The notes: generated by a model not told the origin, from the letters alone. 64,000 bases of DNA from an uncultured virus (IMG/VR IMGVR_UViG_3300033149_004104) (IMGVR_UViG_3300033149_004104:1-64000), one strand, 5' to 3'. Counted from the stretch's first letter, positions 1,791 to 49,739 are shown. A program made the numbers and translations.

Positions 1791-2777
1791 ATGTTTAAAA
1801 AATGGAAAGATATTGAAAATAGTTGTAAAGAGAAAATGATTAAAAAATTTTTTAATACGTATACTTTTGAAGATGAAATTTTTCAAGTGACAGAAAAAAT
1901 TCATGGTAGTAATCTGTCAATTATCTTTTACCCTGACGGGCATAGAGAATATGCTAGACGTAGCGGAGTATTAAAAGATGAAAACTTTTATAATTATAAA
2001 GAAGCCTTTAAAAAAGAAAACAATCCTGACCTTTATATTTTTCTTAATGCGATTCAACAATTTGCAATAAAAAATGGACAGATAATACAACTTATAGGAG
2101 AGCTTTTTGGTAAAGGAGTACAAAAGGGAATTTATTATGGAGAGGGAATTTATTGGCGCTGGTTCGGTACATACGCAAACGAAGAATTTCTAGCAGTAGA
2201 AGATGAGGAGCTTTTGTTGAGTAAAATCGAGGATTTAGGATTTGATGTGTATCCGGATAAAATTAGAGTGCCGCTTCTCTGTTTATTTTCTAATATAAGT
2301 TCAGCTAAAGATTTTATAGATCAAGTAAAACAAATAGACTTGGAGAAAGATAGTTTATTAACTCCTCCAGGATATAACAAAAAGAACATAGCTGAAGGTG
2401 TTGTTATACGACCTTATAATCGAAATTATGCGATTAATCATCAATGGTTTCTTTTTAAATATAAGCATCCAAAATTTGAGGAAATTATAATGGGAAAAAA
2501 TAAAGCAAAGAAGCCTAAAGTTAAGGTTTCAGAGAAAGTACAGAATATAGCTCAAGAAATGTGTAGATATGTAAATGAGAACAGGACAGAGAGCCTCTTT
2601 TCAAAAGAAGGAGAAATACAAGATGAAAAACAGATAGGAGAATATATCAAATTATATTTAGAAGATATATATAAAGATTGCCTTTTAGATTTAAAAGATT
2701 TAAAAAAAGAAGAAAAAAAGTATATTAATAAACAGATGACAAACTTGATAGTAAAGGAATTGAGAAGATGTTTATAG
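1791..2777 (+). CDS. RNA ligase, Rnl2 family
   Basis: Nucleotidyltransferase motifs TEKIHGSN (I), GELFG (III), EGVVIRP (IV), KYK (V). Confidence 0.85.
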   Translation: MFKKWKDIENSCKEKMIKKFFNTYTFEDEIFQVTEKIHGSNLSIIFYPDGHREYARRSGVLKDENFYNYKEAFKKENNPDLYIFLNAIQQFAIKNGQIIQLIGELFGKGVQKGIYYGEGIYWRWFGTYANEEFLAVEDEELLLSKIEDLGFDVYPDKIRVPLLCLFSNISSAKDFIDQVKQIDLEKDSLLTPPGYNKKNIAEGVVIRPYNRNYAINHQWFLFKYKHPKFEEIIMGKNKAKKPKVKVSEKVQNIAQEMCRYVNENRTESLFSKEGEIQDEKQIGEYIKLYLEDIYKDCLLDLKDLKKEEKKYINKQMTNLIVKELRRCL

Positions 2778-4804
2778 AAAATCTTACGATTGAGAACTAT
2801 GGCGCATTAAAAAATGCGATGTTAGAATTTCAAAAAGGATTCAATATTCTTAGTGGTTCTAATGGGGCAGGGAAGTCACATATTATTAGAGCATTAGCAT
2901 ATCTCATTCTTAATCACAATGAAGGTAAAATTGAAGATGATTTAAATTGGCATAGTAATTCTTTTACTATCCAGACTAAGATTAAATATGGTGGGAAAGA
3001 TTTTATAATTAAGAATCATTATGATGGAAAAAATGTATTGAAAGAGTTAATAATTTCCTCTAATGGAAATAAACAGCAGTACAGCGGAAATAAAGATGTA
3101 GTGGACGTACTTTCACAATATTTTGATCCTACTTATTCTAAACCGGCTCTTATAGCTTTTCAGGGTGAAATGGATGTAGTAACAGCAACTCCTGCTAAAA
3201 GACGAGAGAGTTTAAAAAATATTTACGATTTGAATTTTCAAAAAGAAATTCAGCAATTAGAAGATGAAAAAACGTCATTAGAATTAAAAGTACAGGAATT
3301 GGAAAAGCAGATAGCAATTCTTGAAAGTAAAAGCTATAATTTATATAAAAAAGAAAGACTCCCTTTTAATGAGAATACATATAAAGAAAAAGAAACAGAT
3401 GTTAAAAAATTACAAAGTAAGAAACAATCTTTAGAAAATGAGATAAACGATTTTGAATCAAAATTACAAAATGTTAATCGATTTAAAAGTTTTTATGAAA
3501 GTAAAGAAAGAGAAATTAAAGAATTATTGGACAAGAAAGATATTTTGCAAAGTAAGATAAACGAATTAAAAAATGTTATAACTAATCCCAATTATAATGT
3601 AGTAGATAAATTAAAAAAACAAATAGATGATATTAAACTCGAAAGGATTAAAGAGGATTTCGATATAAATGTTCTTAATTCTAAAAAAGAAAAACTTTAT
3701 GAAGAAAAAAATGAGCTTAAGAATATAAAAAAGAATATAGAATTGGTGGAAATGGGTAAGTGCCCGACTTGTGGAGCGGATTTTTCTAATGTCGATATAA
3801 ATGATTATAAGAGACGTTATGAAGAAAAAGAAGAAATAGTAAGCGCCATTAATAAAGAAATAGAGGCTATTGAGAAAGATTATAAAACTTGGCAGGAGAA
3901 AAAGAAAAAAAACGATAGAAAGAAGGAATTAAAAAATAATTTAATTAATCAACTTAAATATGAAGAAAAGAAAATAGAAGATGTTATTAACAGTAGTAAA
4001 GAAAGTTTAGAAGAAAGAAGTAATGAATTAGTTAATGTTAATAAAAAAATAGAAGATTATGCCGAGGAAAAGGAAGTTTTAAAAAAAGATTTACAAAAGG
4101 AGCTTGATCAACTACCAGATGAAGCAGATATAGAATCTAAGAATAAGCAAATTGAGGATATAAAAAACAAAATTGATTTAATAAGCCGGGAAATTGAAGA
4201 ATATAGAACAGTTCTTAATAAGAATAAATGGATAGAGGAAGAAAATAAAAAGATACTGAAACAAAAAGATGAGGATGAAAAATTAAAGCAAAAGATTAAT
4301 AAAGATCATGATCATTTATTGAAAGAAGTAAACGAATATAAAAAATCTGTAGATATTCTAAAAAAGGATTTTCCTAATTATATAATAAACGAACTTAAAA
4401 GCGATATAGAAACAGGAATGAATGAAATACTGGATAAAGCATATAACGGAAGATATCATGTACAAATAAAAGAAAATCGCAGTGGACTTTCTATTGTATA
4501 TGGAAACGATAAAGAAATAAAACTTGCAAGCGGAGCAGAAAAAAATTTATTTACCATAGGATTTAAGAATGCATTTACGAGGCTGGCAGGATTAAAGGTA
4601 CTTTTGTTGGATGAATGCGATAACTTCATGGATGAAGATATAGCGAAAAAGACCTTTGATGTTCTTCAGAATCTTATAGAACAAGAAGCACTTAATCAGG
4701 TTATTCTTATTACTCATAAGCAGAGTGTTAAAGAATTACTGGAGGGTGATTATAGAGCTAGAGTTTTTGAAGTAAAAAATGGTGGGGCATTTTTACTTGA
4801 ATGA
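2768..4804 (+). CDS. sbcC: SbcC/Rad50-like (gp46-like) ATPase
   Basis: Walker A GSNGAGKS, Q-loop, long coiled coil with CPTCG zinc hook, ASGAEK signature, LLLDE Walker B, ITH. Confidence 0.92.
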   Translation: MFIENLTIENYGALKNAMLEFQKGFNILSGSNGAGKSHIIRALAYLILNHNEGKIEDDLNWHSNSFTIQTKIKYGGKDFIIKNHYDGKNVLKELIISSNGNKQQYSGNKDVVDVLSQYFDPTYSKPALIAFQGEMDVVTATPAKRRESLKNIYDLNFQKEIQQLEDEKTSLELKVQELEKQIAILESKSYNLYKKERLPFNENTYKEKETDVKKLQSKKQSLENEINDFESKLQNVNRFKSFYESKEREIKELLDKKDILQSKINELKNVITNPNYNVVDKLKKQIDDIKLERIKEDFDINVLNSKKEKLYEEKNELKNIKKNIELVEMGKCPTCGADFSNVDINDYKRRYEEKEEIVSAINKEIEAIEKDYKTWQEKKKKNDRKKELKNNLINQLKYEEKKIEDVINSSKESLEERSNELVNVNKKIEDYAEEKEVLKKDLQKELDQLPDEADIESKNKQIEDIKNKIDLISREIEEYRTVLNKNKWIEEENKKILKQKDEDEKLKQKINKDHDHLLKEVNEYKKSVDILKKDFPNYIINELKSDIETGMNEILDKAYNGRYHVQIKENRSGLSIVYGNDKEIKLASGAEKNLFTIGFKNAFTRLAGLKVLLLDECDNFMDEDIAKKTFDVLQNLIEQEALNQVILITHKQSVKELLEGDYRARVFEVKNGGAFLLE

Positions 4805-4940
4805 CAAATTTTTAAAATAACGATTCCGATAATACTCTTATGCTATATAGTGAATTTTTTAAAAAAAGTATATTTTTTTATTAAAAATTTGGATAAAGAA
4901 ATATATATTAGACATATAAACGAATAAATTAAAGGAAGAA

Positions 4941-5864
4941 ATGGTGAATATTAAAAAGCAAAAGTTGATAATGTTGAAAGGGCTCCCCGCATCTGGAAAA
5001 ACTACTTGGGCAAAGGAACAAATTTTAAAAGCCAATGGATCAATAAAAAGAGTTAATAAAGACGATTTAAGAAAGATGATCGATATATCTCAATGGAGTA
5101 AAGAAAAAGAATTACATATCCTAAGGATTAGAGACACGATTATATATTATTACCTCAGTAACGGGTATTCAGTAATTGTAGATGATACAAATTTGAATCC
5201 ATATCATGAACAACGACTCAGACGAATTGTAAGCGAGTATAATAGTAATGTCAGAGAGCATTCTGTTGAGTTTGAAGTTAATGATTCTTTCTGTGATGTT
5301 GATTATCGAGAATGTATTAAAAGAGATTTGATAAGAGGAAAAGAAGCGGTGGGAGAAAAGGTTATCATTAATATGTATAGAAAATATTTACATAAGGCAC
5401 CCGTTCTTATTCCTTATAAAGTTGAATTACCCGACTGTATTTTAGTGGATGTTGATTGGACTCTTGCTATTCATGAATACCGTGATCCTTTTGATTATTA
5501 TAAATGCACAGAAGATAAATTAAATACACCAATTGCATCTTTAATAAACGATATTCAAAATCGACATTCACTATCGTATACAATGATTGTAACAGGTAGA
5601 GAGAATATAAAGTATGAATCGGGAGTAACAGTTTGGGATTTAACAAGTGAATGGCTTAATAAAAATCATATTCGTTATGATAGAATTTTTATTAGAGAAG
5701 AAGGAGATCATAGACCTGATTGGATGGTAAAAAAAGAAATGTTTGAAAAGCATATTAAGGATAAATATAACGTGTTATATGTTATAGACGACAGAAGGCA
5801 AACTATAGACATGTGGCGTAAAGAGGGATTGACAGTACTTGATGTAGCTGGTCACGATTTTTAA
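4941..5864 (+). CDS. pseT: Polynucleotide 5'-kinase / 3'-phosphatase (T4 PseT-like)
   Basis: N-terminal GLPASGKTT P-loop; C-terminal HAD motifs DVDWT, TGR, IDDR. Confidence 0.9.
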   Translation: MVNIKKQKLIMLKGLPASGKTTWAKEQILKANGSIKRVNKDDLRKMIDISQWSKEKELHILRIRDTIIYYYLSNGYSVIVDDTNLNPYHEQRLRRIVSEYNSNVREHSVEFEVNDSFCDVDYRECIKRDLIRGKEAVGEKVIINMYRKYLHKAPVLIPYKVELPDCILVDVDWTLAIHEYRDPFDYYKCTEDKLNTPIASLINDIQNRHSLSYTMIVTGRENIKYESGVTVWDLTSEWLNKNHIRYDRIFIREEGDHRPDWMVKKEMFEKHIKDKYNVLYVIDDRRQTIDMWRKEGLTVLDVAGHDF

Positions 5865-5877
5865 ATGAGGAAAAAAA

Positions 5878-7008
5878 ATGAATCTATATTTACAGAATTT
5901 TTTAATTGAGCATCCCAACGATTGGAAGGAAATATTAAAAGAAAAACCTTATGCATTTAAAGTTATAGAGAAAGACGATTTAGTATTATTTAAATATAAT
6001 CAGATAGACAGTGATTTTAATATTCCTTTAGTACAGGAGGCACGAGGAATTGTATTTGATAAAAGCGATTGGAGTGTTATTAAGCACCCTTTCCATAAAT
6101 TTTTTAACTATGGAGAATCTAACGCAGCCGTTATCGATTGGGGATCAGCTAGTATACAAGAAAAAATTGATGGCTCTCTTATCGCATGTTATTTTTATAA
6201 AAATGAATGGATGATATCGACTAACGGAACTATCGATGCACGAGATGCAAGTTTACAGTTTCCCGTTCAATTAAATAAAAAGAAAAAAATAAACTCATTT
6301 TACGATCTTGTAGTTTATACACTAGAACAAATGTTTGGACGTGATTATATTTTTGGAGTTTTCCAGAATATAGATAAAAAGTCAACGCATCTTTTTGAAA
6401 TAGCAACCCCAATTAATAGGATAGTTGTCCCCTATAAGGATTTTAAAATTTATTACTTATGTTCAAAGGTAAATAGTACAGGTATCGAATATTACAGTAA
6501 ACCATTACTTGATAGATTCCCAATTCCGAAAGTATATTCATTTAATTCATTGGAAGATTGTGTTAAAGCAGCTAAAGAATTACAATATGATAGTGAGGGC
6601 TATGTAATAGTGGATAAAAACTGGAATCGTATTAAAATTAAGAGTCCAGCATATATAGCTGCGCATCATTTAAGAGGTGAAGATGTCGTAACAGATAAAA
6701 AATTACTCAATCTTATTCTTGCTAATGAAGGGAATGAATTTCTTACGTATTTCCCCGAGTTTAAAGATGCCTATAATAATTTATATAATAGACTTTTACA
6801 GTTAAAAACAAGAATGGGGGCGGATGCAAAAAAGCTTGAAGAGATGCAGAAAGGGAATAAATCAAGAAAAGAAATAGCTTTATGGGCTAATAAAGAGTGC
6901 GTTATACCTGCGTTTATATTTCAATTGCTTGATAAGAAAATTGAAAACATTGATAATTTTATATATAATAAATGTAAAGTAGAAAAACTTTTAGAGTATA
7001 TAAAATAA
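5878..7008 (+). CDS. RNA ligase, T4 Rnl1 family
   Basis: KFFN, EKIDGSLI (motif I), EGYVIV and KIKS motifs; directly downstream of Pnk. Confidence 0.88.
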   Translation: MNLYLQNFLIEHPNDWKEILKEKPYAFKVIEKDDLVLFKYNQIDSDFNIPLVQEARGIVFDKSDWSVIKHPFHKFFNYGESNAAVIDWGSASIQEKIDGSLIACYFYKNEWMISTNGTIDARDASLQFPVQLNKKKKINSFYDLVVYTLEQMFGRDYIFGVFQNIDKKSTHLFEIATPINRIVVPYKDFKIYYLCSKVNSTGIEYYSKPLLDRFPIPKVYSFNSLEDCVKAAKELQYDSEGYVIVDKNWNRIKIKSPAYIAAHHLRGEDVVTDKKLLNLILANEGNEFLTYFPEFKDAYNNLYNRLLQLKTRMGADAKKLEEMQKGNKSRKEIALWANKECVIPAFIFQLLDKKIENIDNFIYNKCKVEKLLEYIK

Positions 7009-11485: not shown

Positions 11486-12229
11486 ATGAAACTACCGAAA
11501 TTTAGACCTTGTGTAAAGTGTGATAACGGATACATATATAGTACAAATTCATTTAATGAACCTGTAGTTACAATTTGCTCATGTTTACAGAAATATCAGT
11601 ATCAAATAAATCTGTTACAGAAATTAGAAAAAGCCAATATATTTCCTTCTCAATTTCTCTTGAAATATGATATAGATAACGATTATATCGGGCCTGATAA
11701 ACAAGGTAATATACCAAAATTGAAAAAATTTATAAGGGAATTTAAGGACACTTTTTATGATAAAACTCTGTATATATACGGAAAAGTTGGAACTCAAAAA
11801 ACAACAGTTGCTAATTGGATAGCAAAAGAGTTGATAGAGAAAGGCGTAAGTGTTTATTTTACTTTTTTAAATGATTTAATAAAAGAATTGCAAGAAAATA
11901 CTTTTAGTGAACTTGATTTGGAAGATAAATACTATGATTGTGATTGTCTTATTATAGACAGAGCTTTTGGTAGGGATAAAGTTACCATTTATAAAAGTGG
12001 ATATCAAATTCCGTTCTTAGATAATTTCCTTCGTAGAAGAATAGATCAATTAAATAAAGCAACTATTATTATATCAAATGATGCAATAGAGAATATATCT
12101 AAGAATGGATTTAACGAGGATATTCAAAGTTTGATCGAAAGAAAAACGAAACCGATTAAGTCAGTTTTTCTTTTTGAAGATTATTATGGAATTAAAGATG
12201 ATTTTGGAACATTAAAGTTATGGGAATAA
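11486..12229 (+). CDS. DnaC/IstB-like helicase loader
   Basis: N-terminal CxxC...CxC, P-loop variant YGKVGTQKT, LIID, TIIISN; adjacent to helicase. Confidence 0.75.
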   Translation: MKLPKFRPCVKCDNGYIYSTNSFNEPVVTICSCLQKYQYQINLLQKLEKANIFPSQFLLKYDIDNDYIGPDKQGNIPKLKKFIREFKDTFYDKTLYIYGKVGTQKTTVANWIAKELIEKGVSVYFTFLNDLIKELQENTFSELDLEDKYYDCDCLIIDRAFGRDKVTIYKSGYQIPFLDNFLRRRIDQLNKATIIISNDAIENISKNGFNEDIQSLIERKTKPIKSVFLFEDYYGIKDDFGTLKLWE

Positions 12230-12230
12230 T

Positions 12231-13652
12231 ATGAACGAAAAAAGTATTGTTTATCTTGAACAAAATATATTATCGTGTTGTATTGAAAATCCTAGATATA
12301 TTTTTGATATTGATAGTAAGTTTTTTTTATCCGAAGAAGGGGCTGAGTTATTTAAAACATTTAAGAATCTTTATATTCGGGATTTACCAATTAATAAAAG
12401 AAATATTTTAATTGATTTAAGCAAAAAAAATAAATCAATACAAGAAACTATTATTGATAGTTTATTTGATCTTAATGTTGAAAAAGATGAGTCAAATTTT
12501 CAAAAATACCTTAAAGATTTAAAAGAGCAACGATTTAAGTTTAATGTTATAAAACAAATAATTCCTAGTATGCTTAAAGAAAGCTCTAAAGCAGAGGTTT
12601 CAATTGGCGAAATAACCGAACTTGTTCAAAGTATACAAGAAGAACTTTATGAATTAAATAAGAAAGAAACAAAGTTGTATACTCCTGATCGTATGTTTAG
12701 TGATTATGAATTAACTTTGTATTCAAGGCAGGATACTGTATTTGATTATAGTACAGGCGATAGTTATTTAGATAGCATGCTATTAGAAAAATTCCAACCA
12801 GGAAGAATAACAACAATATTTGGCCCTAGCGGAGTGGGTAAAAGTGCTTTTGCCTTATTTCTTGTAAATAGACAGATGCATAAGATGATTCCTAGTATGT
12901 ATTTCACTCTTGAAATGACGTACGAATCTACTATGGATAGATTAGTTGCACAAATATTAAATATTCCTGTAAAAGAACTATACCCACAAATATATAGTAG
13001 AGATAACATTGAAGAGGTAAATCATTCAATTATTCAACAGGTAAGAGAGTTAAAAGAAAGATTTAAAGATTCGCAATTTTTTGAGCTTATTGAAGAGGAT
13101 TCTTTGTACATTCATAATATTGAATCACTGATACGGGATTTTAAAGTTAAAAGTAAAGTTGATTATGTAATCGTAACGATTGATTTGTTAACTATGTTAA
13201 AAGAATTTAACGAGGGAAGTAAAAGTAAAGCGGATAAATATGAAGATGCTATGAATTTATTACATGAGATGGCAAGAAGAAATAATGTTCATATAGTGGG
13301 GGTAGTGCAGGGAAGAAGACAGAATGAAAGAGTTAATATTACAAGCATAGATCAATTAGAAAGATTTAGACCCCAATCACAAGAAATAAAAAATTCGGGG
13401 GCTATTTATGAAAGATCACGAACAATATTGGGCATATTTAGAAAGAAGCACTTTGCTAATTTATATCTTCCAAATGATCCTAATACATCTATAATGCCAG
13501 ATATAATGGAAATTGATATTTTAAAACAGAACATGGGGGCAACAGGACGTATAAACTATTTGTTTGAACCTGAAACATATAGATTTATGAAAATTGTAGA
13601 TAATGTAGAAGAGATAGAAAATTCAGGAGAGGGAAATGAAGATATTAGTTAA
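12231..13652 (+). CDS. dnaB: Replicative DNA helicase, DnaB-like
   Basis: GPSGVGKS, FTLEM, TIDLL, VVQ, IKNSGAI, ILKQ motifs. Confidence 0.88.
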   Translation: MNEKSIVYLEQNILSCCIENPRYIFDIDSKFFLSEEGAELFKTFKNLYIRDLPINKRNILIDLSKKNKSIQETIIDSLFDLNVEKDESNFQKYLKDLKEQRFKFNVIKQIIPSMLKESSKAEVSIGEITELVQSIQEELYELNKKETKLYTPDRMFSDYELTLYSRQDTVFDYSTGDSYLDSMLLEKFQPGRITTIFGPSGVGKSAFALFLVNRQMHKMIPSMYFTLEMTYESTMDRLVAQILNIPVKELYPQIYSRDNIEEVNHSIIQQVRELKERFKDSQFFELIEEDSLYIHNIESLIRDFKVKSKVDYVIVTIDLLTMLKEFNEGSKSKADKYEDAMNLLHEMARRNNVHIVGVVQGRRQNERVNITSIDQLERFRPQSQEIKNSGAIYERSRTILGIFRKKHFANLYLPNDPNTSIMPDIMEIDILKQNMGATGRINYLFEPETYRFMKIVDNVEEIENSGEGNEDIS

Positions 13653-13712: not shown

Positions 13713-14570
13713 ATGAATAATTTTAATTCTGTACAAGGACTTGATCTTAATCAAGTCAAACAAAGTATAGCGTTTCCTATTTCACGTATGGATTTAGTAA
13801 CAGAAAATCCACATGAGGAAACAAAATTTCAACTAGTACGGAGGGAAGATACGGGGAGGAAGTTAGGTATTATTAGAAAAAATCATCCCACTATTCCATA
13901 TCCGGATGTTATGGATTGGCTTACTGCTGAATTTGATAACGCTGAAGTAGTATATAAACTTCGAGATTCGGTAGTAAAAAATGATGGGTCATTATTTCAA
14001 GAATATCTTTTTGATTACAATATTGAACCGCCAGATGGTGAGGATATCTCCCCTCTTGTTATAGTAAAATCAAGTTACGTAGGCCCCCCGCTTGATATAT
14101 ACTTCGGCACCTATCGATTTGTGTGTAGTAATGGAGTAATAACAGGGGAAACAATTGAAAAAATTCACATTAATGCACGATCCTCCGATATTCTTAATTC
14201 ATCTATTCGAGATGATATAAGAGTGTCCTTAGATAAATTTGAAAGAGTAGCGGGGCTGTATAAAAATCTTACTCATGAAAAATTTAATCCATATCTTAAT
14301 GCAGTCATTGCCAATATGTATATTTCAACTGGAGTTAAGAAAGTAATTCTTAAAGAACTTCAAAAACAAGGCAGTGTTGAATTATTAAAAGAAAAAATTA
14401 AAGCTGAAGACTTTAATGAAAATTTTAGAGAAAATCTATTCAATATAATAAATGAAATTACCGCATGGGAATTTTACAATATTGTAACTAATATTGCCAC
14501 AAGAAAGAGTAATACTGTAGCGGCTCGATTAGGAAATTACATAAATATTTCTAAGGTATTTAGAATTTAA
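13713..14570 (+). CDS. DUF932-like phage protein
   Basis: LVRREDTGRKLGI and GTYRFVCSNG motifs. Confidence 0.65.
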   Translation: MNNFNSVQGLDLNQVKQSIAFPISRMDLVTENPHEETKFQLVRREDTGRKLGIIRKNHPTIPYPDVMDWLTAEFDNAEVVYKLRDSVVKNDGSLFQEYLFDYNIEPPDGEDISPLVIVKSSYVGPPLDIYFGTYRFVCSNGVITGETIEKIHINARSSDILNSSIRDDIRVSLDKFERVAGLYKNLTHEKFNPYLNAVIANMYISTGVKKVILKELQKQGSVELLKEKIKAEDFNENFRENLFNIINEITAWEFYNIVTNIATRKSNTVAARLGNYINISKVFRI

Positions 14571-14578
14571 ATAGAATT

Positions 14579-14690
14579 GGGGATGCAATTGGTTCGACTG
14601 TTAAAATAACACGGGGAGAGATACGATGCTCTCCCCGTGCTTTAAAAGACGACTTTAACTAGGACGAGGGTTCAAGGCCCTCCATCTCCA
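14579..14690 (+). ncRNA. Minimal tmRNA-like RNA: tRNA-like domain only, no mRNA-like domain
   Basis: 5' GGGGATG pairs with 3' CATCTCC-A (7 bp, G3.U70, A73); unpaired D-loop CAATTGGTTCGAC; GTTAAA/TTTAAC helix capped by an 11-bp hairpin; GGAC plus T-arm GAGGG-TTCAAGG-CCCTC. Confidence 0.8.
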
Positions 14691-14706
14691 AAAGTAGAGA
14701 AGTAAT

Positions 14707-14967
14707 ATGGTGTGTTTAGAGGATAAAGATAAAGATACTGCACTTACAAAAGTGGCGATAGGATTTACTCAAGCCGGCAATACTTTAGGAACTACTTCAG
14801 ATATGGAGGAGTTAACATTGGAGGTGGAAAGTCAGTATGGCGATATTTCTAAGGGGGGACTTTTTTTTGTTCTAAGAACTAATACAGGATGGAGTTTTGA
14901 TAATATTAACGATATTGAACAAACGATAAGAAAATTATGGAGTAAATTAAAAAATATAAAAATTTAA
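14707..14967 (+). CDS. Hypothetical protein
   Basis: 86-aa ORF with upstream AGAGAAG. Confidence 0.6.
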   Translation: MVCLEDKDKDTALTKVAIGFTQAGNTLGTTSDMEELTLEVESQYGDISKGGLFFVLRTNTGWSFDNINDIEQTIRKLWSKLKNIKI

Positions 14968-15021
14968 ATTTTTAAATAAAAAATTGAACCACATACTAAT
15001 ATATTGTAAAAGGTGGTTTTT

Positions 15022-15456
15022 ATGCTTAAGGCGATTGTAACAGGATCAAAAAATTTTAGTGATTATAAATTTCTCGAGGATATAATTGATGAAGTTTTAT
15101 TTGAGATATACGTTTTTTCAAAAGGATTTAATTATGTTGAAATAGTGTCAGGAACATCTTCTAAAGGGGTTGACAGTCTTAGTGTACAGTATGCAAAGAG
15201 TAGAAATTATCAAATTAAACAATTTCCAGTACAATGGGATTTATATGGTAGAAGAGCGGGAATATTACGCAACAATGAAATGGCAAAGTATTTATACAGA
15301 AATATATACGAGCACAAAGGGCTTGGAATTTGTATATGTTTTTGGGATGAAAAAAGTAAAGGCACTGCCAATATGATTGATACTGCAAAGCAGTATAATA
15401 TTCCTACTTATGTAATAAATTATAATTCCCTAGAATGGGATGAGGAGGAAATATAA
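15022..15456 (+). CDS. SLOG-family (YspA/DUF2493-like) protein
   Basis: IVTGSKNF, IVSG..KGVD, W..YG..AG..RN..M, FWDEKSKGTANMI motifs. Confidence 0.75.
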   Translation: MLKAIVTGSKNFSDYKFLEDIIDEVLFEIYVFSKGFNYVEIVSGTSSKGVDSLSVQYAKSRNYQIKQFPVQWDLYGRRAGILRNNEMAKYLYRNIYEHKGLGICICFWDEKSKGTANMIDTAKQYNIPTYVINYNSLEWDEEEI

Positions 15457-27708: not shown

Positions 27709-29001
27709 GTGATTAAAATATTTAAAAACCTGAACCTTCTTGAAAAGAAAGATCACATTATAAGAAAAATGCCCAATTTGACTAGTGAGCAGAAGGAAGA
27801 ACTAATAAACTTTTTCAATAGACACCCAAATTATGAAAATAGGGTCGATTGGAATAAGTGGAGAACTTTAACATACGAAGATTTTAAAGACATTCTTGAA
27901 ATTGAATCCAAAACTCAAAGGAAGAAATCCGTTAAGACAAGAGGAATAAAAGGACTAAAAGAGGGTAAGGATTATATTCAATTGAAGAATTTGCCCGACG
28001 ATATACAAGGATATATTCCTTTGAATTACGAGGCATCAAAATTTATTGCTTCTAGATATGTAGGAGGCATTGAAGGAAAATGGTGTACTGCATATCAAAA
28101 AACCGATAAATATTGGGAAGAATATAAAAGCTACGGGGTAATTTTTATATATTTAATCAAAGACAATGAAAAATATGCAATAGCTGTTTATCTCGACAAT
28201 AAAACTTATGAAATTTATAATAAAGATGACGATAAAATTTCTTTTATAGAAGGCATTAATATTAAATCAGATATATTAAATGATCGAAATGTTTCTCTTT
28301 TTGAAAAAGTAAGAAAAGAAATCGGTTTTGAACATTGGATTACCAAAGCTGAAATATCAAAGGATGCTAAGTTTGAATATGGCGAATTTAGGCAAATAGT
28401 TTGGTTAGATGGGGCGTGGTATAAAGGGACTTGGTATAACGGAATTTGGAAAAATGGAATTTGGAAAAATGGAACTTGGGAAGATGGTTCTTGGAAGAGT
28501 GGAACTTGGAAGAGTGGAACTTGGAAGTTTGGAACTTGGGAAGATGGAATATGGGAAAATGGAAATTGGATAATGGGATTATGGGAAGATGGAATTTGGA
28601 AAGACGGAACTTGGAAAGATGGAACTTGGGAGGATGGAACATGGAAAAGTGGAATTTGGAACAAAGGGGGATGGACAAAAGGGATATGGGAAGACGGAAT
28701 ATGGAAAAATGGAATTTGGGGTGGAGGAACCTGGGAAAGTGGAATTTGGAAGGATGGATCTTGGATTAAGGGGACGTGGATTAATGGAACTTGGGAATTT
28801 GGAACTTGGTATAACGGAATTTGGAAAAACGGAACTTGGAAAGATGGAACTTGGATTGATGGGGAATGGAAAGACGGAATCTGGAAAGATGGAGTATGGA
28901 AAGGTGGAAAAATATGGGATCCTCAAATAGAAAAATATCAATATAGTGACAAAAACCCCTATGATTGTGAATGGAGCTTAAGTTATTACAAAGAACAATA
29001 G
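27709..29001 (+). CDS. GxWxx-repeat protein, family A
   Basis: N-domain KKDHIIRKMPNL...GKWCTAY; about 33 GxWxx units; C-tag KNPYDCEWSLSY. Confidence 0.85.
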   Translation: MIKIFKNLNLLEKKDHIIRKMPNLTSEQKEELINFFNRHPNYENRVDWNKWRTLTYEDFKDILEIESKTQRKKSVKTRGIKGLKEGKDYIQLKNLPDDIQGYIPLNYEASKFIASRYVGGIEGKWCTAYQKTDKYWEEYKSYGVIFIYLIKDNEKYAIAVYLDNKTYEIYNKDDDKISFIEGINIKSDILNDRNVSLFEKVRKEIGFEHWITKAEISKDAKFEYGEFRQIVWLDGAWYKGTWYNGIWKNGIWKNGTWEDGSWKSGTWKSGTWKFGTWEDGIWENGNWIMGLWEDGIWKDGTWKDGTWEDGTWKSGIWNKGGWTKGIWEDGIWKNGIWGGGTWESGIWKDGSWIKGTWINGTWEFGTWYNGIWKNGTWKDGTWIDGEWKDGIWKDGVWKGGKIWDPQIEKYQYSDKNPYDCEWSLSYYKEQ

Positions 29002-29033
29002 TATTTATATTATAAAGATGGTGGTTGAGGGGC

Positions 29034-30311
29034 ATGATCAAAATATTTAAAAATTTAAACTTACTTGAAAAAAAAGATCATATTATAAGAAAAATACCTA
29101 ATTTGACTAATGAGCAGAAGGAGGAGCTGATAAACTTTTTCGATAAACACCCAAATTACGAAAATAGAATTGATTGGAACAGGTGGAGGACTTTAACATA
29201 CGAAGATTTTAAGGGTATTCTTGAAATTGAATCAAAGACTCAGAAAAAAAAATCCGTTAAGATAAGTGGAATAAAAGGACTAAAAGAGGGTGAGGATTAT
29301 ATTCAACTGAAAGGGTTGCCCGATGATACGCAAGGATACATACCTCTAAATTACGAGGCTTCAAAATTTATTGCTTCTAGATATGTAGGGGGTATCGAGG
29401 GGAGATGGTGTACAGCATATCAAAAAACTAGGGAATATTGGGAAAAATATACAAGTGAGAATATAATCTTAATTTATTTGATTAATAATAATACAAAATA
29501 TGCAATAGCCGTTTATCCAAATAATAAAACTCATAAAATTTATGATAGTGATGACAACAAAATTTCTTATATTCCCGGTATTGATATTAACCGAGATATA
29601 TTAAATAAAAGAAACATTTCTATTTTTGAAAAAATAAGAAGAGAAGTTGAAGACTATAAGCATTGGATTCATAAAGCTGAAATATCAAGAGACGCTAGAT
29701 TCGAAATTGATAAAACAAATCAAGTAATTTGGTACAAAGGGACTTGGGTAGATGGGGTATGGGAAAGGGGAACTTGGATTAATGGGATTTGGTTTGATGG
29801 TTATTGGGCAAAAGGAGCTTGGAAGAATGGAATTTGGAGAGGGGGAACTTGGGAAAAAGGAACTTGGGAAGACGGAACCTGGGAAAAAGGAATTTGGTAT
29901 GGCGGGACTTGGAAAGATGGAATTTGGGAACATGGAACTTGGAAAGATGGAACTTGGAAATATGGAACCTGGAAAAATGGAGTTTGGGAAAGTGGAACTT
30001 GGAAAGATGGAGTCTGGAAAAGCGGAACCTGGAAAAATGGAGCCTGGGAAAGCGGAACTTGGAAAGATGGAACCTGGAAGCTTGGAATCTGGGAACTTGG
30101 GACTTGGATTAATGGAACCTGGGAGTCTGGAACTTGGGAATATGGAACCTGGAAAGATGGAGTCTGGGAAGGTGGGGATTGGGACGATGGAAATTGGGAA
30201 AAGGGAGTATGGAAAGGTGGAAGGATATGGAATCCAGAAACAGGAAAATATCAATATAGCGATAAGAACCCAAACGAATGTGAATGGAGCTTAAGTTATT
30301 ACAAAAGATAA
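29034..30311 (+). CDS. GxWxx-repeat protein, family A
   Basis: Paralog of 27709; ATG after GAGGGG RBS. Confidence 0.85.
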   Translation: MIKIFKNLNLLEKKDHIIRKIPNLTNEQKEELINFFDKHPNYENRIDWNRWRTLTYEDFKGILEIESKTQKKKSVKISGIKGLKEGEDYIQLKGLPDDTQGYIPLNYEASKFIASRYVGGIEGRWCTAYQKTREYWEKYTSENIILIYLINNNTKYAIAVYPNNKTHKIYDSDDNKISYIPGIDINRDILNKRNISIFEKIRREVEDYKHWIHKAEISRDARFEIDKTNQVIWYKGTWVDGVWERGTWINGIWFDGYWAKGAWKNGIWRGGTWEKGTWEDGTWEKGIWYGGTWKDGIWEHGTWKDGTWKYGTWKNGVWESGTWKDGVWKSGTWKNGAWESGTWKDGTWKLGIWELGTWINGTWESGTWEYGTWKDGVWEGGDWDDGNWEKGVWKGGRIWNPETGKYQYSDKNPNECEWSLSYYKR

Positions 30312-30330
30312 TAATATGGGGGAGTAAAAC

Positions 30331-31473
30331 GTGATTAAAATATTTAAAAATCTGAACCTTCTTGAAAAAAAAGATCACATTATAAGAAAAATACCTAATT
30401 TGACTAGTGAACAGAAGGAGGAGCTAATAAATTTTTTCAATAAACACCCAAATTACGAGAACAGAATTGATTGGAATAAGTGGAAAACTTTAACATACGA
30501 AGATTTTAAAGACATTCTAGGGATTGAATCTAAGACTCAAAGGAAAAAATCCGTTAAGATAAGTGGAATAAAAGGATTAAAAGAGGGCGAGGATTATATT
30601 CAATTGAAGAATTTGCCTGACGATACGCAAGGATATATCCCTTTGAATTACGAGGCTTCAAAATTTATTGCTTCTAGATATGTAGGGGGTATCGAGGGGA
30701 AATGGTGTACAGCATACCAAAAAACTAGGGAATATTGGGAAGAATATAAAAGTGATAGGATAATTTTTATATATTTAATCAAAGACAATGAAAAATATGC
30801 AATAGCCGTTTATCCTGACAATAGAACTTATGAAGTTTATGATAAAAATGATAACAAAATTTCTTATATTCCCGGTATTGATATTAAACGAGATATATTA
30901 AATAAAAAAAATATTTCTATTTTTGAAAAAATAAAAAGAGAAGTTGAAGACTACAAGCATTGGATTTATAAAGTTAAAATATCAAAAGACGCTAGATTTG
31001 AAATTGATAAGACGAATCGGGTATTTTGGTATGAAGGGACTTGGATAGATGAGGTATGGGAAAGTGGAACCTGGAAAGATGGAACTTGGCTTGATGGTTA
31101 TTGGACAGATGGAACTTGGGAGAATGGAACCTGGGAAAATGGTACTTGGGAATATGGAATCTGGGAAAATGGGGTTTGGAAAGACGGAATTTGGAAAGAT
31201 GGAACTTGGTTGAAGGGGGTTTGGAAAGAGGGAATTTGGAAAAATGGAGTTTGGGAAAATGGAACTTGGGAAGATGGGACATGGGAGGATGGGTTTTGGG
31301 AAAATGGAATCTGGAAAGATGGAACTTGGAAAGATGGAACTTGGAAGGATGGAATCTGGAAAGACGGAGTGTGGAAAGGTGGAAAGATATGGAACCCTCA
31401 AACAAAAAAATATCAGTATAGTAACAAAAACCCCTATGATTGTGAATGGGGTTTAAGCTATTACAAGAAATAA
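30331..31473 (+). CDS. GxWxx-repeat protein, family A (mosaic)
   Basis: Paralog of 27709 and 29034. Confidence 0.85.
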   Translation: MIKIFKNLNLLEKKDHIIRKIPNLTSEQKEELINFFNKHPNYENRIDWNKWKTLTYEDFKDILGIESKTQRKKSVKISGIKGLKEGEDYIQLKNLPDDTQGYIPLNYEASKFIASRYVGGIEGKWCTAYQKTREYWEEYKSDRIIFIYLIKDNEKYAIAVYPDNRTYEVYDKNDNKISYIPGIDIKRDILNKKNISIFEKIKREVEDYKHWIYKVKISKDARFEIDKTNRVFWYEGTWIDEVWESGTWKDGTWLDGYWTDGTWENGTWENGTWEYGIWENGVWKDGIWKDGTWLKGVWKEGIWKNGVWENGTWEDGTWEDGFWENGIWKDGTWKDGTWKDGIWKDGVWKGGKIWNPQTKKYQYSNKNPYDCEWGLSYYKK

Positions 31474-31509
31474 TAATACTTATATTATAAAAATGGGGGG
31501 TTGAGGGGC

Positions 31510-32298
31510 ATGATCAAAATATTTAAAAATTTGAACCTTCTTGAAAAAAAAGATCACATTATAAGAAAAATGCCCAATTTAACTAGTGAACAGAAGGAAG
31601 AAATAATAAATTTTTTTAATAAGTGTCCAAATTACGAGAATGGAATTGATTGGAACGAGTGGGAAACTTTAATATATGAAGATTTTAAGAATATTCTTAA
31701 AATTGATCCCAGAATTCAAGGAAGGGAATTTGTTAAAATAAGCGGAATAAAAGAATTAAAGAGGGGTGATGATTATATTCAATTGAAGAAAGCCCCTAAT
31801 AATGTGCAAGAATACACCCCCTTAGATTATAAAGCGTCAAAATTTATTATTTCTGAAAAAGAAATCGGTTTTGAGCATTGGATTACCAAAGCTGAAATAT
31901 TAAAGGAGGCTAAATTTAAATTTGATGGGCCTACACAAATAATTTGGTTAAGTGGAACTTGGAAAAACGGAACTTGGAAAAACGGAACTTGGAAGGATGG
32001 GATTTGGGAAAACGGAACCTGGCAAACTGGAACTTGGGAAAATGGAACTTGGAAAAACGGAACTTGGGAAGACGGAATTTGGAAAAATGGAACTTGGAAA
32101 TTTGGAACTTGGAAAGGTGGGGTTTGGAATGATGGGATTTGGGTAATGGGAATTTGGAAAGATGGAAATTGGAAAGATGGAGCATGGAAAGGCGGGGAGA
32201 TATGGAATCTAGAAACAAGAAAATATGAATATAGCGATAAAAACCCATACGAATGTGAATGGAGTTTAAGTTATAGAAAGTTTCCATATCAATATTAA
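31510..32298 (+). CDS. GxWxx-repeat protein, family A, with internal deletion of about 86 aa
   Basis: YKASKFIISEKEIGFEHW joins segments about 86 aa apart in 27709; about 16 repeats. Confidence 0.75.
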   Translation: MIKIFKNLNLLEKKDHIIRKMPNLTSEQKEEIINFFNKCPNYENGIDWNEWETLIYEDFKNILKIDPRIQGREFVKISGIKELKRGDDYIQLKKAPNNVQEYTPLDYKASKFIISEKEIGFEHWITKAEILKEAKFKFDGPTQIIWLSGTWKNGTWKNGTWKDGIWENGTWQTGTWENGTWKNGTWEDGIWKNGTWKFGTWKGGVWNDGIWVMGIWKDGNWKDGAWKGGEIWNLETRKYEYSDKNPYECEWSLSYRKFPYQY

Positions 32299-32311
32299 AA
32301 AGAGGTGTGTT

Positions 32312-32545
32312 GTGGAAATAATAAATGAAGAAGAATTTAGAATAGATTATAGCAATTTTTATATAGCATATAATAAAACTCAAGATTTATGGTATGCACG
32401 ACATGAGAATGAAGATTTATATGAAGAAGATGTTATTATTGATATAGAAAATTTAAAAGATGAACCGGTGGAGCTATTTGATGGCTTTATACTTGATATA
32501 CAAGAATTTAAAGAAATAGAGGGGCTAAAAAATACGATCATTTAG
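32312..32545 (+). CDS. Small acidic hypothetical protein within the paralog array
   Basis: 77-aa ORF, GAGGTG RBS. Confidence 0.55.
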   Translation: MEIINEEEFRIDYSNFYIAYNKTQDLWYARHENEDLYEEDVIIDIENLKDEPVELFDGFILDIQEFKEIEGLKNTII

Positions 32546-32678
32546 TACTAAGATATGAAAAGATAGATTAAGATGATGCTTGGTTAGAAAAATGATTACA
32601 ATTTTTGAATTTTAAGAAAAAACTTATAGAGTTTAAGTTATAATAAAAAATAGATTAGAGAGATATGCGGTATAAAAG

Positions 32679-33911
32679 ATGGTTAGAATATTCAAAAATT
32701 TAAATTTACTCGAAAAGAAAGATCATATTATAAGAAAAATGCCCAATTTGACTAGTGAACAAAAAGAAGAGCTGATAAATTTCTTTAGTAGGCATCCTAA
32801 CTATGAAAATAGAATTGATTGGAATAAGTGGAAAACTTTAACATACGAAGATTTTAAAGACATTCTAGGAATTGAATCAAAGACTCAAAGAAAGAAATCT
32901 GTTAAGATAAGTGGAATAAAAGGATTAAAAGAGGGCAAGGATTATATTCAACTGAAAGGGTTGCCTGACGATATGCAAGGATACATTCCTTTAAACTATG
33001 AGGCATCAAAATTTATTGCCTCTAAATATGTAGGAGGCATCAAAGGAAAATGGTGCACAGCATATCGAAAAAGTAAGGAATATTGGGAAAAATATACAAG
33101 TAAGAGTATAATCTTAATTTATTTGATTGGTAATAATACAAAATATGCAATATCCGTTTATCTAGATAATAGAACTTATGAAATTTATGATAGTAAGGAT
33201 AACAAAATTTCTTATATTCCCGGTATTGATATTAAACGAGATATATTAAATAAAAGAAATATTTTTATTTTTGAAAAAATAAGAAGAGAAGTTGAAGACT
33301 ACAAGCATTGGATTTATAAAGTTAAAATATTAAAAGGCGCTAGATTTGAAATTGATAAGACAAATCAAGTAATTTGGTATAAAGGAATTTGGATAGATGG
33401 AGTATGGGAAAGGGGAACTTGGGTTAATGGAGTTTGGCTTGATGGTTATTGGACAGATGGAACTTGGGAAGACGGAACTTGGAAAGAGGGGACTTGGGAA
33501 AAGGGAACCTGGAAAGACGGAACCTGGGAAAAAGGAATTTGGTATGGCGGGATTTGGAAAGATGGGATCTGGGAATTTGGAACTTGGAAAGATGGAACTT
33601 GGAAAGGGGGGACTTGGGAAAAGGGTACTTGGGAAGACGGAACTTGGGAAGATGGCTTCTGGGAAAACGGAACTTGGGAAGATGGGACTTGGCTGGAGGG
33701 GGTTTGGAAAGATGGAACTTGGGAAGACGGAACTTGGGAAGATGGAACTTGGAAATATGGAGTCTGGGAAGGTGGAGTTTGGAAAGATGGAATTTGGGAA
33801 AGTGGAGTGTGGGAAGGTGGAAAGATATGGAACCTGAAAACAAAAAAATATAAATATAGCGATAAGAACCCATACGAATGTGAATGGAGTTTGAGTTATT
33901 ACAAAAGATAA
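32679..33911 (+). CDS. GxWxx-repeat protein, family A
   Basis: Paralog; C-tag KNPYECEWSLSYYKR. Confidence 0.85.
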   Translation: MVRIFKNLNLLEKKDHIIRKMPNLTSEQKEELINFFSRHPNYENRIDWNKWKTLTYEDFKDILGIESKTQRKKSVKISGIKGLKEGKDYIQLKGLPDDMQGYIPLNYEASKFIASKYVGGIKGKWCTAYRKSKEYWEKYTSKSIILIYLIGNNTKYAISVYLDNRTYEIYDSKDNKISYIPGIDIKRDILNKRNIFIFEKIRREVEDYKHWIYKVKILKGARFEIDKTNQVIWYKGIWIDGVWERGTWVNGVWLDGYWTDGTWEDGTWKEGTWEKGTWKDGTWEKGIWYGGIWKDGIWEFGTWKDGTWKGGTWEKGTWEDGTWEDGFWENGTWEDGTWLEGVWKDGTWEDGTWEDGTWKYGVWEGGVWKDGIWESGVWEGGKIWNLKTKKYKYSDKNPYECEWSLSYYKR

Positions 33912-33944
33912 TAATATTTATGGCGTAAAAAGGGAGAATAAAAG

Positions 33945-35132
33945 ATGATTAGAATATTTAAAAATTTAAACTTACTTGAAAAAAAAGATCATATTATAAG
34001 AAAGATGCCCAATTTGACTAGTGAGCAGAAGGAAGAGCTAATAAACTTTTTCAACAAACATCCAAATTATGAAAACAGGATTGATTGGAACAAATGGAAA
34101 ACTTTAACTTATGATGATTTTAAAAATGTTCTAGGGATTGAATCTAAAACTCAGAGAAAAAAATCTGTCAAAACAAAAGGAATACGGGGATTAAAGGAAG
34201 GCGAGGATTATGTTCAATTAAAAGAACTTCCAAATAATGTAGAGGCATATATTCCTTTAAATTATGAGGCTTCAAAATTTATTGCCTCCAAATATGTAGG
34301 GGGTATCGAGGGAAAATGGTGTACTGCATATCAAAAAACCGATGAGTATTGGAAGAAATATACAAATGAGAGTATAATCTTAATTTATTTAATTAGTAAT
34401 GATACAAAATATGCAATAGCCGTTTATCCAAATAATAAAACTCATAAAATTTATGATAGTGATGATAACAAAATTTCTTATATCCCTGATATTTATATTA
34501 ACCGAGATATATTAAATAAAAGAAACATTTCTATTTTTGAAAAAATAAGAAGAGAAGTTGAAGATTATAAGCATTGGGTTCATAAAGCTGAAATATCGAA
34601 AGACGCCAAATTCGAAATTGATAAGACAAATCAAGTAATTTGGTACAAAGGGGTTTGGATAGATGGATTATGGGAAAGGGGAACCTGGAAAGATGGAACT
34701 TGGGAATATGGAATCTGGAAAGATGGTATCTGGGAAAAAGGAATCTGGAAAGATGGTATTTGGGAAGACGGAACTTGGAAATTTGGAACTTGGGTATACG
34801 GAATTTGGATAGATGGAACTTGGGAAAACGGAACTTGGAAGAAGGGAACCTGGGAAGATGGAGTCTGGGAAACCGGAACTTGGGCGAAAGGAACTTGGGA
34901 AGATGGAATCTGGAAAGATGGGGTTTGGAAAGATGGAACCTGGGAGTCTGGAACTTGGGAATATGGAACCTGGAAAGATGGCATCTGGGAAGGTGGGGAT
35001 TGGGACGATGGAAATTGGGAAAAGGGAGTATGGAAAGGTGGAAGGATATGGAGTTCAAAAACAGAAAGATATGAATATAGTGTAAAAAATCCTTATGACT
35101 GTAAATGGAGTTTAAGCTATAAAAAACGTTAG
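33945..35132 (+). CDS. GxWxx-repeat protein, family A
   Basis: Paralog; C-tag KNPYDCKWSLSY. Confidence 0.85.
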   Translation: MIRIFKNLNLLEKKDHIIRKMPNLTSEQKEELINFFNKHPNYENRIDWNKWKTLTYDDFKNVLGIESKTQRKKSVKTKGIRGLKEGEDYVQLKELPNNVEAYIPLNYEASKFIASKYVGGIEGKWCTAYQKTDEYWKKYTNESIILIYLISNDTKYAIAVYPNNKTHKIYDSDDNKISYIPDIYINRDILNKRNISIFEKIRREVEDYKHWVHKAEISKDAKFEIDKTNQVIWYKGVWIDGLWERGTWKDGTWEYGIWKDGIWEKGIWKDGIWEDGTWKFGTWVYGIWIDGTWENGTWKKGTWEDGVWETGTWAKGTWEDGIWKDGVWKDGTWESGTWEYGTWKDGIWEGGDWDDGNWEKGVWKGGRIWSSKTERYEYSVKNPYDCKWSLSYKKR

Positions 35133-43030: not shown

Positions 43031-43049
43031 CAAACAAGGGGATTGATTG

Positions 43050-44522: not shown

Positions 44523-44540
44523 AACAAAGGTCTGTCAGCA

Positions 44541-46091: not shown

Positions 46092-46128
46092 TTATTATTA
46101 GAAAGTTATAAAAAGGGAAGTAATAATA

Positions 46129-47892: not shown

Positions 47893-47910
47893 AATAAGGA
47901 GCTATCAGCA

Positions 47911-49701: not shown

Positions 49702-49739
49702 CAAAATAATAAAATTATAGAAAAAAGGGGTTGCCAGCA

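Follow-up and report, generated by a model that had tools for sequence, protein, structure and literature searches.

A candidate message-less tmRNA gene in an uncultured phage and the phage RNA family to which it belongs

Why would a phage carry the tRNA-like part of a transfer-messenger RNA (tmRNA) and none of its message? Bacteria rescue stalled ribosomes and tag the proteins caught on them chiefly by trans-translation, which is also a drug target. In this system alanyl-tmRNA, in complex with SmpB and EF-Tu, moves into the vacant A site of a non-stop ribosome; G3·U70 together with A73 specifies AlaRS, and the loop/elbow and helix 2a of the tmRNA bind SmpB. The question is raised by a locus in an uncultured virus (IMG/VR IMGVR_UViG_3300033149_004104), whose 135,563-bp record, estimated to be 82% complete, is called G000 here and its first 64 kb (positions 1-64,000) the window. 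On its plus strand the window encodes a complete tmRNA tRNA-like domain (TLD), measuring 112 nt to the discriminator, from which the message domain is absent. We consider it reasonably probable that the phage has in this locus a functional gene for a tag-less mini-tmRNA, a TLD closed by a hairpin, and that the product of this gene interferes in a dominant-negative manner with trans-translation in the host.

A tRNA-like domain closed by a hairpin

The element has every part of a tmRNA TLD, namely a 7-bp acceptor stem with G3·U70 and A73, a stemless loop ending in GGNUUCGAC together with GGAC, and a T-arm with a 5-bp stem and a 7-nt loop of the form TTCNANN (Table 1). The original prediction, made from the sequence alone, had described an alanine-type acceptor, discriminator, loop, helix, 11-bp hairpin, GGAC and T-arm lying between two coding sequences; on reading the sequence all of these motifs and their coordinates are confirmed, and the two flanking open reading frames (ORFs) are those listed in Table 1. 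The element is not an unusual tRNA, a reading that we rejected, as it has neither a D-arm nor an anticodon arm, the loop at 14586-14598 being stemless, and neither ARAGORN nor Rfam calls a tRNA there. Nor does it contain an mRNA-like domain (resume codon, tag ORF and stop codon) or any of the pseudoknots PK1-PK4; the interior is a single hairpin. No exact copy of the hairpin arms exists elsewhere in G000, and the two single-mismatch copies of one arm, at 47621 and 127974, are probably due to chance. CCA is not encoded, the discriminator A being followed by AAAG.

Table 1. Features of the mini-tmRNA locus in window coordinates.
Feature	Position	Strand	Basis or remark
DnaC-like loader and DnaB-like helicase, replication module	11486..13652	+	upstream of DUF932 ORF
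DUF932-family ORF (PF06067), synteny marker	13713..14570	+	stop codon 8 nt before the RNA
Whole mini-tmRNA gene (TLD-only tmRNA)	14579..14690	+	RF00023 and R1 covariance-model alignments
Acceptor stem 5' strand GGGGATG, with G3 of G3·U70	14579..14585	+	sequence; 7/7 pairing with CATCTCC 14683-14689
Stemless D-loop analogue, 13 nt, ending GGTTCGAC	14586..14598	+	aligned to tmRNA consensus GGaUUCGAC
Helix P2a 5' strand, T + GTTAAA (GTTAAA = 14600-14605)	14599..14605	+	sequence, RF00023 alignment
Perfect 11-bp GC-rich hairpin, 8-nt loop	14610..14639	+	replaces PK1, tag ORF and PK2-4
3' internal loop, 14 nt, A-rich, containing alternative TTTAA partner (14641-14645)	14640..14653	+	
Helix P2a 3' strand: TTTAAC (14654-14659), bulged T, A	14654..14661	+	sequence, RF00023 alignment
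GGAC, invariant tmRNA motif preceding the T-arm	14662..14665	+	sequence
T-arm: 5-bp stem GAGGG/CCCTC, 7-nt loop TTCAAGG	14666..14682	+	sequence, RF00023 alignment
Acceptor 3' strand CATCTCC (T70) and discriminator A (14690)	14683..14690	+	sequence
86-aa ORF, no known family	14707..14967	+	start 16 nt after discriminator

The tmRNA model of Rfam, RF00023, searched over 14400-14900 with E-value reporting, aligned its positions 1-374 over 14579-14693, with 274 of the 374 model positions replaced by the 8-nt loop. A check with a tmRNA covariance model had been proposed in the original prediction, and it gave this end-to-end alignment at 44.4 bits (E 1.7e-16 on 501 nt, 1.1e-17 per genome), below the gathering cut-off of 47; ARAGORN, proposed alongside it, failed as a check, calling nothing at the element in either the window or the whole genome, where it made one odd tRNA-like call outside the window. 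Run at gathering thresholds, Rfam gave no match in the window or the rest of the genome, and the mitochondrial tmRNA model RF02544 was not among the matches when all Rfam families were searched at E up to 10 over 14400-14900. A second covariance model, R1, which was built from 45 short members of the family described below, matched 14579-14690 precisely (51.4 bits, E ~3e-10 in 296 kb) and nothing else in the 135.6-kb record. The predicted fold has an energy of -43.7 kcal/mol (RNAfold, z -4.79), equalled by 0 of 200 shuffles, and the element has a G+C content of 48% in a genome of about 30%. From these scores and the contrast in composition, the element is beyond chance. Helix P2a, of 6-7 AU/GC pairs, is aligned by both RF00023 and R1; it is disfavoured by free energy, and its equivalent in the family covaries.

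A covarying family in phages and in relatives of this genome

Short elements of the same design are widespread in viral contigs. A first pattern, consisting of the TLD loop, a short gap, GGAC and the T-stem, gave at least 120 loci; among the matches listed from it, 121 were screened, 11 passed the stem filter and 8 combined 7/7 acceptor pairing with tmRNA spacing, these being the window element, three identical copies of it on contigs of 106-140 kb and four different elements of 107-124 nt. The 110 matches that failed the stem filter were dropped as coding sequence or tRNA pairs, as were three loci (L040, L044 and L065) with only 6/7 pairs and odd spacing. A stricter pattern with a gap of 20-50 nt found 68 loci in viral contigs, all 68 with a 5/5 T-arm, and a pattern with a gap of 50-80 nt found 10 loci; three of these mid-size loci (L202, L205 and L210), in which only 3/7 acceptor pairs form, were dropped as false positives. 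When the loop length was allowed to vary, we obtained 51 distinct elements of 74-124 nt, most of them 74-81 nt, with 7/7 acceptor pairing. Without exception the 51 carry both G3·U70 and A73; G3 was fixed by most of the search patterns while the filter let position 70 be C or U and left position 73 untouched. CCA is encoded in 24 of the 51. A scan of bacteria and archaea with one genome per species (185,579 species) gave 56 pattern matches, only 10 of which R1 supported, against the 68 loci of the viral contigs, and the TLD-only kind is therefore mainly viral.

The family covaries. In an alignment of 53 distinct sequences, from which four weak, tRNA-like R1 matches (22.6-27.9 bits) were excluded, 93.0% of cells are paired compared with 65.5% in shuffles, and the covariation score is 0.637, which 0 of 500 shuffles reached, compared with 0.134 in shuffles and with 0.077-0.104 when the partners are slid. 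The helix equivalent to P2a, which lay outside every filter, is 92.1% paired and shows compensatory double changes in 7 of its 7 pairs; GGAC is invariant in the 45-sequence alignment, though it was fixed by the search pattern. The search for covarying short elements in phage genomes that the original prediction had suggested has thus turned up a family, and R1 also matches, at 57.8 bits, the published TLD-only element of Mycobacterium phage DS6A. Together with the two covariance models and the relatives described below, this covariation supports the central claim of that prediction, an intact alanyl TLD whose message and pseudoknot part has been replaced by a hairpin.

This TLD-only phage family is large and mostly unannotated. 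A blastn search with one member found an unannotated element in the cultivated Streptomyces phages LuckySocke, GiJojo, pSt2308, Shaeky, BRock and Alone3, and the tRNA clusters of LuckySocke (L199 2496-2573) and BRock (L200 2492-2569) enclose it, with an RNA ligase gene nearby; at its position in GiJojo the annotation gives a hypothetical protein. Ordinary tRNA genes lie within 1.5 kb in 13 of the 51 metagenomic loci. ARAGORN labels the element in 3 of the 51, wrongly each time. The family is, in effect, invisible to ARAGORN, mostly below or near the Rfam cut-off and unannotated in GenBank isolates, and Streptomyces phage carriers that can be cultivated would make its function directly testable.

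Inner arms differ greatly between members. The flanks of the mid-size elements L030, L204, L206-L208 and L169 show no relation to the G000 genome, bar one weak match. Read by eye, an interior motif CGACGAAAGGCCCA...AACGAAAG is common to the mid-size mini-tmRNAs L204 (= L086) and L288 (= L207), whose flanks are unrelated to G000, and AAAGACGAC is common to the window element and to that of its relative G002, introduced next. Such interior motifs could be a conserved module of the inner arm.

Relatives of the G000 phage were found through the DUF932 protein, whose homologues are 31-76% identical; an alignment of 24 of them led to related loci in viral and metagenome contigs, and five records were searched. 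Searching the locus with the single protein returned near-identical contigs only, and blastn of the element and its 3.5-kb neighbourhood against 50,697 phage records gave no match. Mini forms are present in three of the five: G001 (90.6 kb, 62% complete; 81 nt, R1 64.4 bits), G004 (147 kb, 100% complete; 104 nt, 55.4 bits) and G002 (146.6 kb, 100% complete; 127 nt, 48.2 bits). RF00023 scores G004 at 59.9 and G001 at 50.3 bits, above its cut-off of 47, and G002 at 44.9. In G003 (147.6 kb, 86% complete) R1 has a weak match of 28.4 bits over 60 nt, which we do not count as a mini-tmRNA, and in G005 (89.9 kb, 42% complete) it has none. The original prediction had foreseen that relatives with a full-length tmRNA at this place would make the element a one-off deletion; RF00023 found a full-length tmRNA in 0 of the 5 related records, so that the attempt at refutation failed.

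The relatives that carry mini forms are distant, their DUF932 homologues being only 42-46% identical to that of the window, while the DnaB-DUF932 synteny is maintained. In G001 the mini-tmRNA follows the DUF932 homologue by about 310 nt, the same site as in the window, and stands in a tRNA cluster with the order Glu, mini-tmRNA, Asn, Arg, Leu, Asp, Tyr. The acceptor GGGGATG/CATCTCC is identical in G000, G001 and G002, and their inner arms are wholly different, so that the TLD-only kind tolerates very different inner arms over lengths of 81 to 127 nt. CCA is encoded by none of the four mini-tmRNAs (G000, G001, G002 and G004) and by 0 of 12 adjacent tRNA genes, and its absence is therefore a rule of this lineage and not a defect.

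Genomic setting and possible functions

A Pfam scan of G000 covered 141 ORFs (13 + 52 + 76), among which are genes of replication and nucleotide metabolism. None of the 141 was an integrase, SmpB, AlaRS, CCA-adding enzyme, ArfB, Pth or release factor, and a six-frame search for SmpB (PF01668) gave no match in G000, whose record is 82% complete, or in the records of the relatives. ARAGORN and Rfam detected no tRNA gene at threshold anywhere in the 135.6 kb. It appears from this comparison of gene content that the phage of the window lost its tRNA genes and kept the mini-tmRNA, which would thus have been retained at a syntenic site while the tRNA genes around it were lost. The element has no convincing promoter or terminator of its own, and no homologue of the 86-aa ORF downstream is found near the mini-tmRNAs of the relatives. 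A SLOG/YspA-family protein is encoded about 320 nt downstream of the mini-tmRNA (15013-15456), and in G002 a homologue (31% identity; L289 908-1294) precedes the mini-tmRNA by about 200 nt; this proximity could be linkage or plain synteny.

The anatomy, the covarying family with DS6A in it, the conservation in distant relatives and the failure to find a phage SmpB are observations on the sequence; from them we infer transcription, processing, CCA addition, charging, SmpB binding, an effect on tagging and a benefit to the phage. We propose that the RNA would be transcribed together with the DnaC/DnaB/DUF932 block of replication genes and then excised as tRNAs are, with RNase P cutting the 5' end and a CCA-less pathway acting on the 3' end. 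CCA would be added by the host enzyme, as is required for the tRNAs of this lineage, and host AlaRS would charge the product with alanine by way of G3·U70 and A73. Bound by SmpB and EF-Tu of the host, the mini-tmRNA would be a competitor of the host's tmRNA, both for SmpB and for non-stop ribosomes that have stalled. Lacking a resume codon and a tag frame, it would leave nascent chains without the SsrA degradation tag, and the net effect would be a dominant-negative interference with host trans-translation during infection.

Several points weigh against this proposal. The Rfam score of the element is 2.6 bits below the cut-off, ARAGORN misses it, and CCA must be added. P2a of the window copy consists of AU pairs only (GTTAAA/TTTAAC), is thermodynamically marginal and is not chosen by energy minimisation, with -35.2 kcal/mol for the tmRNA-like fold, -38.9 for the constrained optimum without P2a and -43.7 for the unconstrained fold. 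The filters themselves demanded acceptor and T-arm pairing in the family, and the sequences were aligned by fitting them to the model; the four contigs with the exact 112-nt element are near-identical, which leaves zero covariation within the 112-nt form. Finally, the inhibition reported in E. coli, as cited in the works discussed below, did not depend on an RNA that could be charged. In nature, however, the alanine identity set is invariant, so that passive sponging of SmpB does not by itself account for the full conservation. That this set is kept everywhere argues that charging, beyond the sponging of SmpB, is under selection, and suggests that the natural role of these RNAs may include entry into the ribosome. 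A blocked ribosome and tag-free release would fit the sequence data alike, as would a sponge and a dead-end acceptor.

The alternative that survives best, although we hold it to be unlikely, is that the charged mini-tmRNA helps in rescue without tagging. Together with host SmpB and EF-Tu it would accept the stalled peptide, adding one alanine, and the ribosome would be freed by a stop-independent, ArfB-type factor or by drop-off and Pth, with the consequence that ribosomes would be recycled for the phage and truncated proteins would not be degraded. Such a role has also been suggested for mitochondrial tmRNAs that lack a message. The invariance of G3·U70 and A73 argues that charging matters, whereas a sponge needs none; the mini-tmRNA has been retained although no tRNA gene is detectable; and tmRNAs of mitochondria and plastids that lack a coding sequence are conserved along with SmpB, presumably still helping with incomplete mRNAs, according to passages of PMC11915505. 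However, the 141 ORFs scanned include neither a release factor nor ArfB or Pth, the sole experimental statement in print, as cited in passages of PMC4131195 and PMC11915505, is one of inhibition, and by sequence rescue of this kind is indistinguishable from the interference with trans-translation that we favour.

Next to this possibility stands the RNA-repair module of the same genome, which at 1791-7008 of the window comprises an Rnl2-like ligase (1791-2777), an AAA/SMC-like ATPase (2768-4804), the kinase-phosphatase PNKP (4941-5864) and a T4 Rnl1-like ligase (5878-7008) and is similar to the answer of T4 to anticodon nucleases. More speculatively still, a charged mini-tmRNA acting as a one-alanine, tag-free acceptor might form with this module a two-part counter to immunity that attacks translation (anticodon nucleases, mRNA interferases), in which the repair enzymes would mend cut tRNAs and the mini-tmRNA would spare phage proteins on stalled ribosomes the SsrA tag and destruction by the host.

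It is improbable, in our view, that the TLD is instead an immunity decoy, absorbing or misleading a host defence factor that recognises molecules shaped like tRNA or tmRNA (anticodon-type nucleases, for example, or the SmpB-like domains of CoCoNuT restriction systems), beside the RNA-repair enzymes of the phage. Both types of ligase and PNKP are encoded in the same genome, the element is near an RNA ligase gene in Streptomyces phages, and SmpB-like domains in defence systems are described in a passage of PMC10542128. A PNKP homologue is present in all three relatives with a strong mini-tmRNA (G001, G002 and G004) and absent from the two without (G003 and G005), a co-occurrence for which relatedness and the incompleteness of records (42% and 86% complete) are confounders. 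However, no nuclease is linked to the TLD, and a decoy has no obvious need of the full alanine identity set.

We regard it as quite improbable that the tRNA-like shape serves only as punctuation, a cleavage site for RNase P and RNase Z between the mRNA of the replication genes and the genes downstream. The tight spacing (gaps of 8 nt to the preceding ORF and 16 nt to the following one) and the want of a convincing promoter or terminator are in keeping with such a role, as are three other tRNA-like minihelices in 5' untranslated regions of the same genome. Yet the tmRNA-specific loop, GGAC and G3·U70 would be superfluous for it and are invariant across unrelated phages, and in relatives the element is inside ordinary tRNA clusters.

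The minihelices themselves lie outside the window, on the minus strand of G000 at about 109.3, 110.6 and 113.0 kb (L129 10300-10345, 11590-11640 and 13990-14030). Each consists of a short GCCG/CGGC stem around a TGGTGGTTAG-like loop and a perfect T-arm, just before the ribosome-binding site, and the third closes a GC-rich RNA, about 130 nt long, downstream of a strong TTGACT-17-TATAAT promoter. The only Rfam matches are partial ones to the T-arm, and ARAGORN calls one of them tRNA-???.

That the locus is a non-functional remnant, either of a decayed tmRNA gene or of a piece of host ssrA from an attachment site, we consider very improbable. Many phages integrate into ssrA and carry ssrA fragments, as stated in passages of PMC9004378, and the Rfam score is below the cut-off; however, both ends are present and perfectly paired, mini forms occur in relatives at 42-46% neighbour identity, the family covaries, and an element of 48% G+C stands in a genome of 30% G+C. 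The element is more than a 3' part of ssrA, no integrase is found among the 141 ORFs scanned, and the remnant reading, attachment site included, is close to refuted.

Just as improbable is the smallest conceivable complete tmRNA, with a real four-codon tag frame (Asp-Asp-Phe-Asn, GAC GAC TTT AAC and the stop TAG) that begins in the 3' internal loop and continues into P2a: short frames ending before the T-arm exist in G002 and G004 too, with a GACGA motif common to all three by eye, but there is none in G001 or L086, it is not conserved in the relatives, it overlaps the strand of P2a on which the cohesion of the TLD depends, AT-rich sequence often contains stops, and the element offers neither a pseudoknot nor a long helix 2 by which a message could reach the decoding site.

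Other parts of the genome are of separate interest. Two adjacent ORFs at 227-1764 of the window encode Dam-like, D12-class N6-adenine DNA methyltransferases. At 27709-35132 and 43047-51173 there are arrays of paralogous ORFs of 380-600 aa without a Pfam family, with a pronounced GC skew of up to 0.46 and long open frames in several frames and on both strands; one translated ORF of the arrays holds dozens of five-residue repeats, G-[TI]-W-x-[DNSK]. On the minus strand of G000, at about 94-103 kb (L128/L129), a glycan cluster encodes NeuB, a CMP-sugar cytidylyltransferase, a GT29 protein of the sialyltransferase family, a sulfotransferase, a UDP-glucose dehydrogenase and GT2 and GT8 glycosyltransferases.

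Comparison with known tmRNAs

The canonical SsrA RNA, as modelled by RF00023, shares with the window element the acceptor with G3·U70 and A73, the GGNUUCGAC loop, P2a, GGAC, the T-arm and an alignment from end to end. In contrast to it, the window element has no PK1, resume codon, tag ORF, stop codon, helix 5 or PK2-4, and without these parts of the message it is therefore unable to template a tag. Full-length and two-piece tmRNAs of phages, such as those of Bxz1-type mycobacteriophages, Bacillus phage G and the Methylophilales phage Melnitz (passages of PMC4131195 and PMC9004378), are likewise phage-borne and derived from ssrA and are often in or near tRNA clusters; as described there, they retain the tag frame and are detectable by ARAGORN, neither of which is true of the window element. 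The papers on AcrIIIA1 and on Melnitz were rejected as precedents, as neither concerns a TLD-only RNA.

Message-less tmRNAs are also on record from organelles, in the mitochondria of jakobids and oomycetes and as plastid genes of about 65 bp in Mallomonadaceae, according to passages of PMC11915505. Similarly to the window element, these consist of the tRNA-like part only, have no tag frame and rely on an SmpB encoded elsewhere. They differ in being organelle genes derived from endosymbionts and, in the case of the mitochondrial ones, in being usually permuted (both points again from passages of PMC11915505).

The closest known counterpart is that of DS6A, which passages of PMC4131195 and PMC11915505, citing Mao et al., 2009, give as a carrier of a TLD-only tmRNA and which is the only phage so named in the literature that we searched. 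In E. coli, as cited there, the cell's own tmRNA was strongly inhibited by a TLD-only RNA of the DS6A type, chargeable or not, 'perhaps by titrating SmpB'. The putative roles put forward in the original prediction, namely SmpB titration, tag-less release and a decoy, match the hypothesis published for DS6A. Both RNAs are encoded by phages, have a complete alanyl TLD without tag frame or pseudoknots and are matched by the same model, R1; like DS6A's, the window element sets a complete TLD on a short arm, has no message, is far below 250 nt and stands in a phage record without SmpB. The DS6A element, which is unannotated in its GenBank record, is about 80 nt long with an inner hairpin of 3 bp, whereas that of the window has 112 nt, a perfect 11-bp hairpin and a 14-nt internal loop; the window element has no encoded CCA and belongs to a genome of about 30% G+C, compared with the 70% G+C of the actinobacteriophage element. 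Similarity between the two was not found by blastn.

A description of a wide phage family of TLD-only RNAs was not found in the limited literature collection that we searched, where the term 'mini-tmRNA' is absent. The TLD-only kind is now seen in a distant lineage of low-G+C phages of about 135 kb. A TLD-only phage tmRNA is already in print for DS6A, and the particulars of the present member are the long perfect hairpin, a lineage without encoded CCA and the retention of the element in a phage without tRNA genes.

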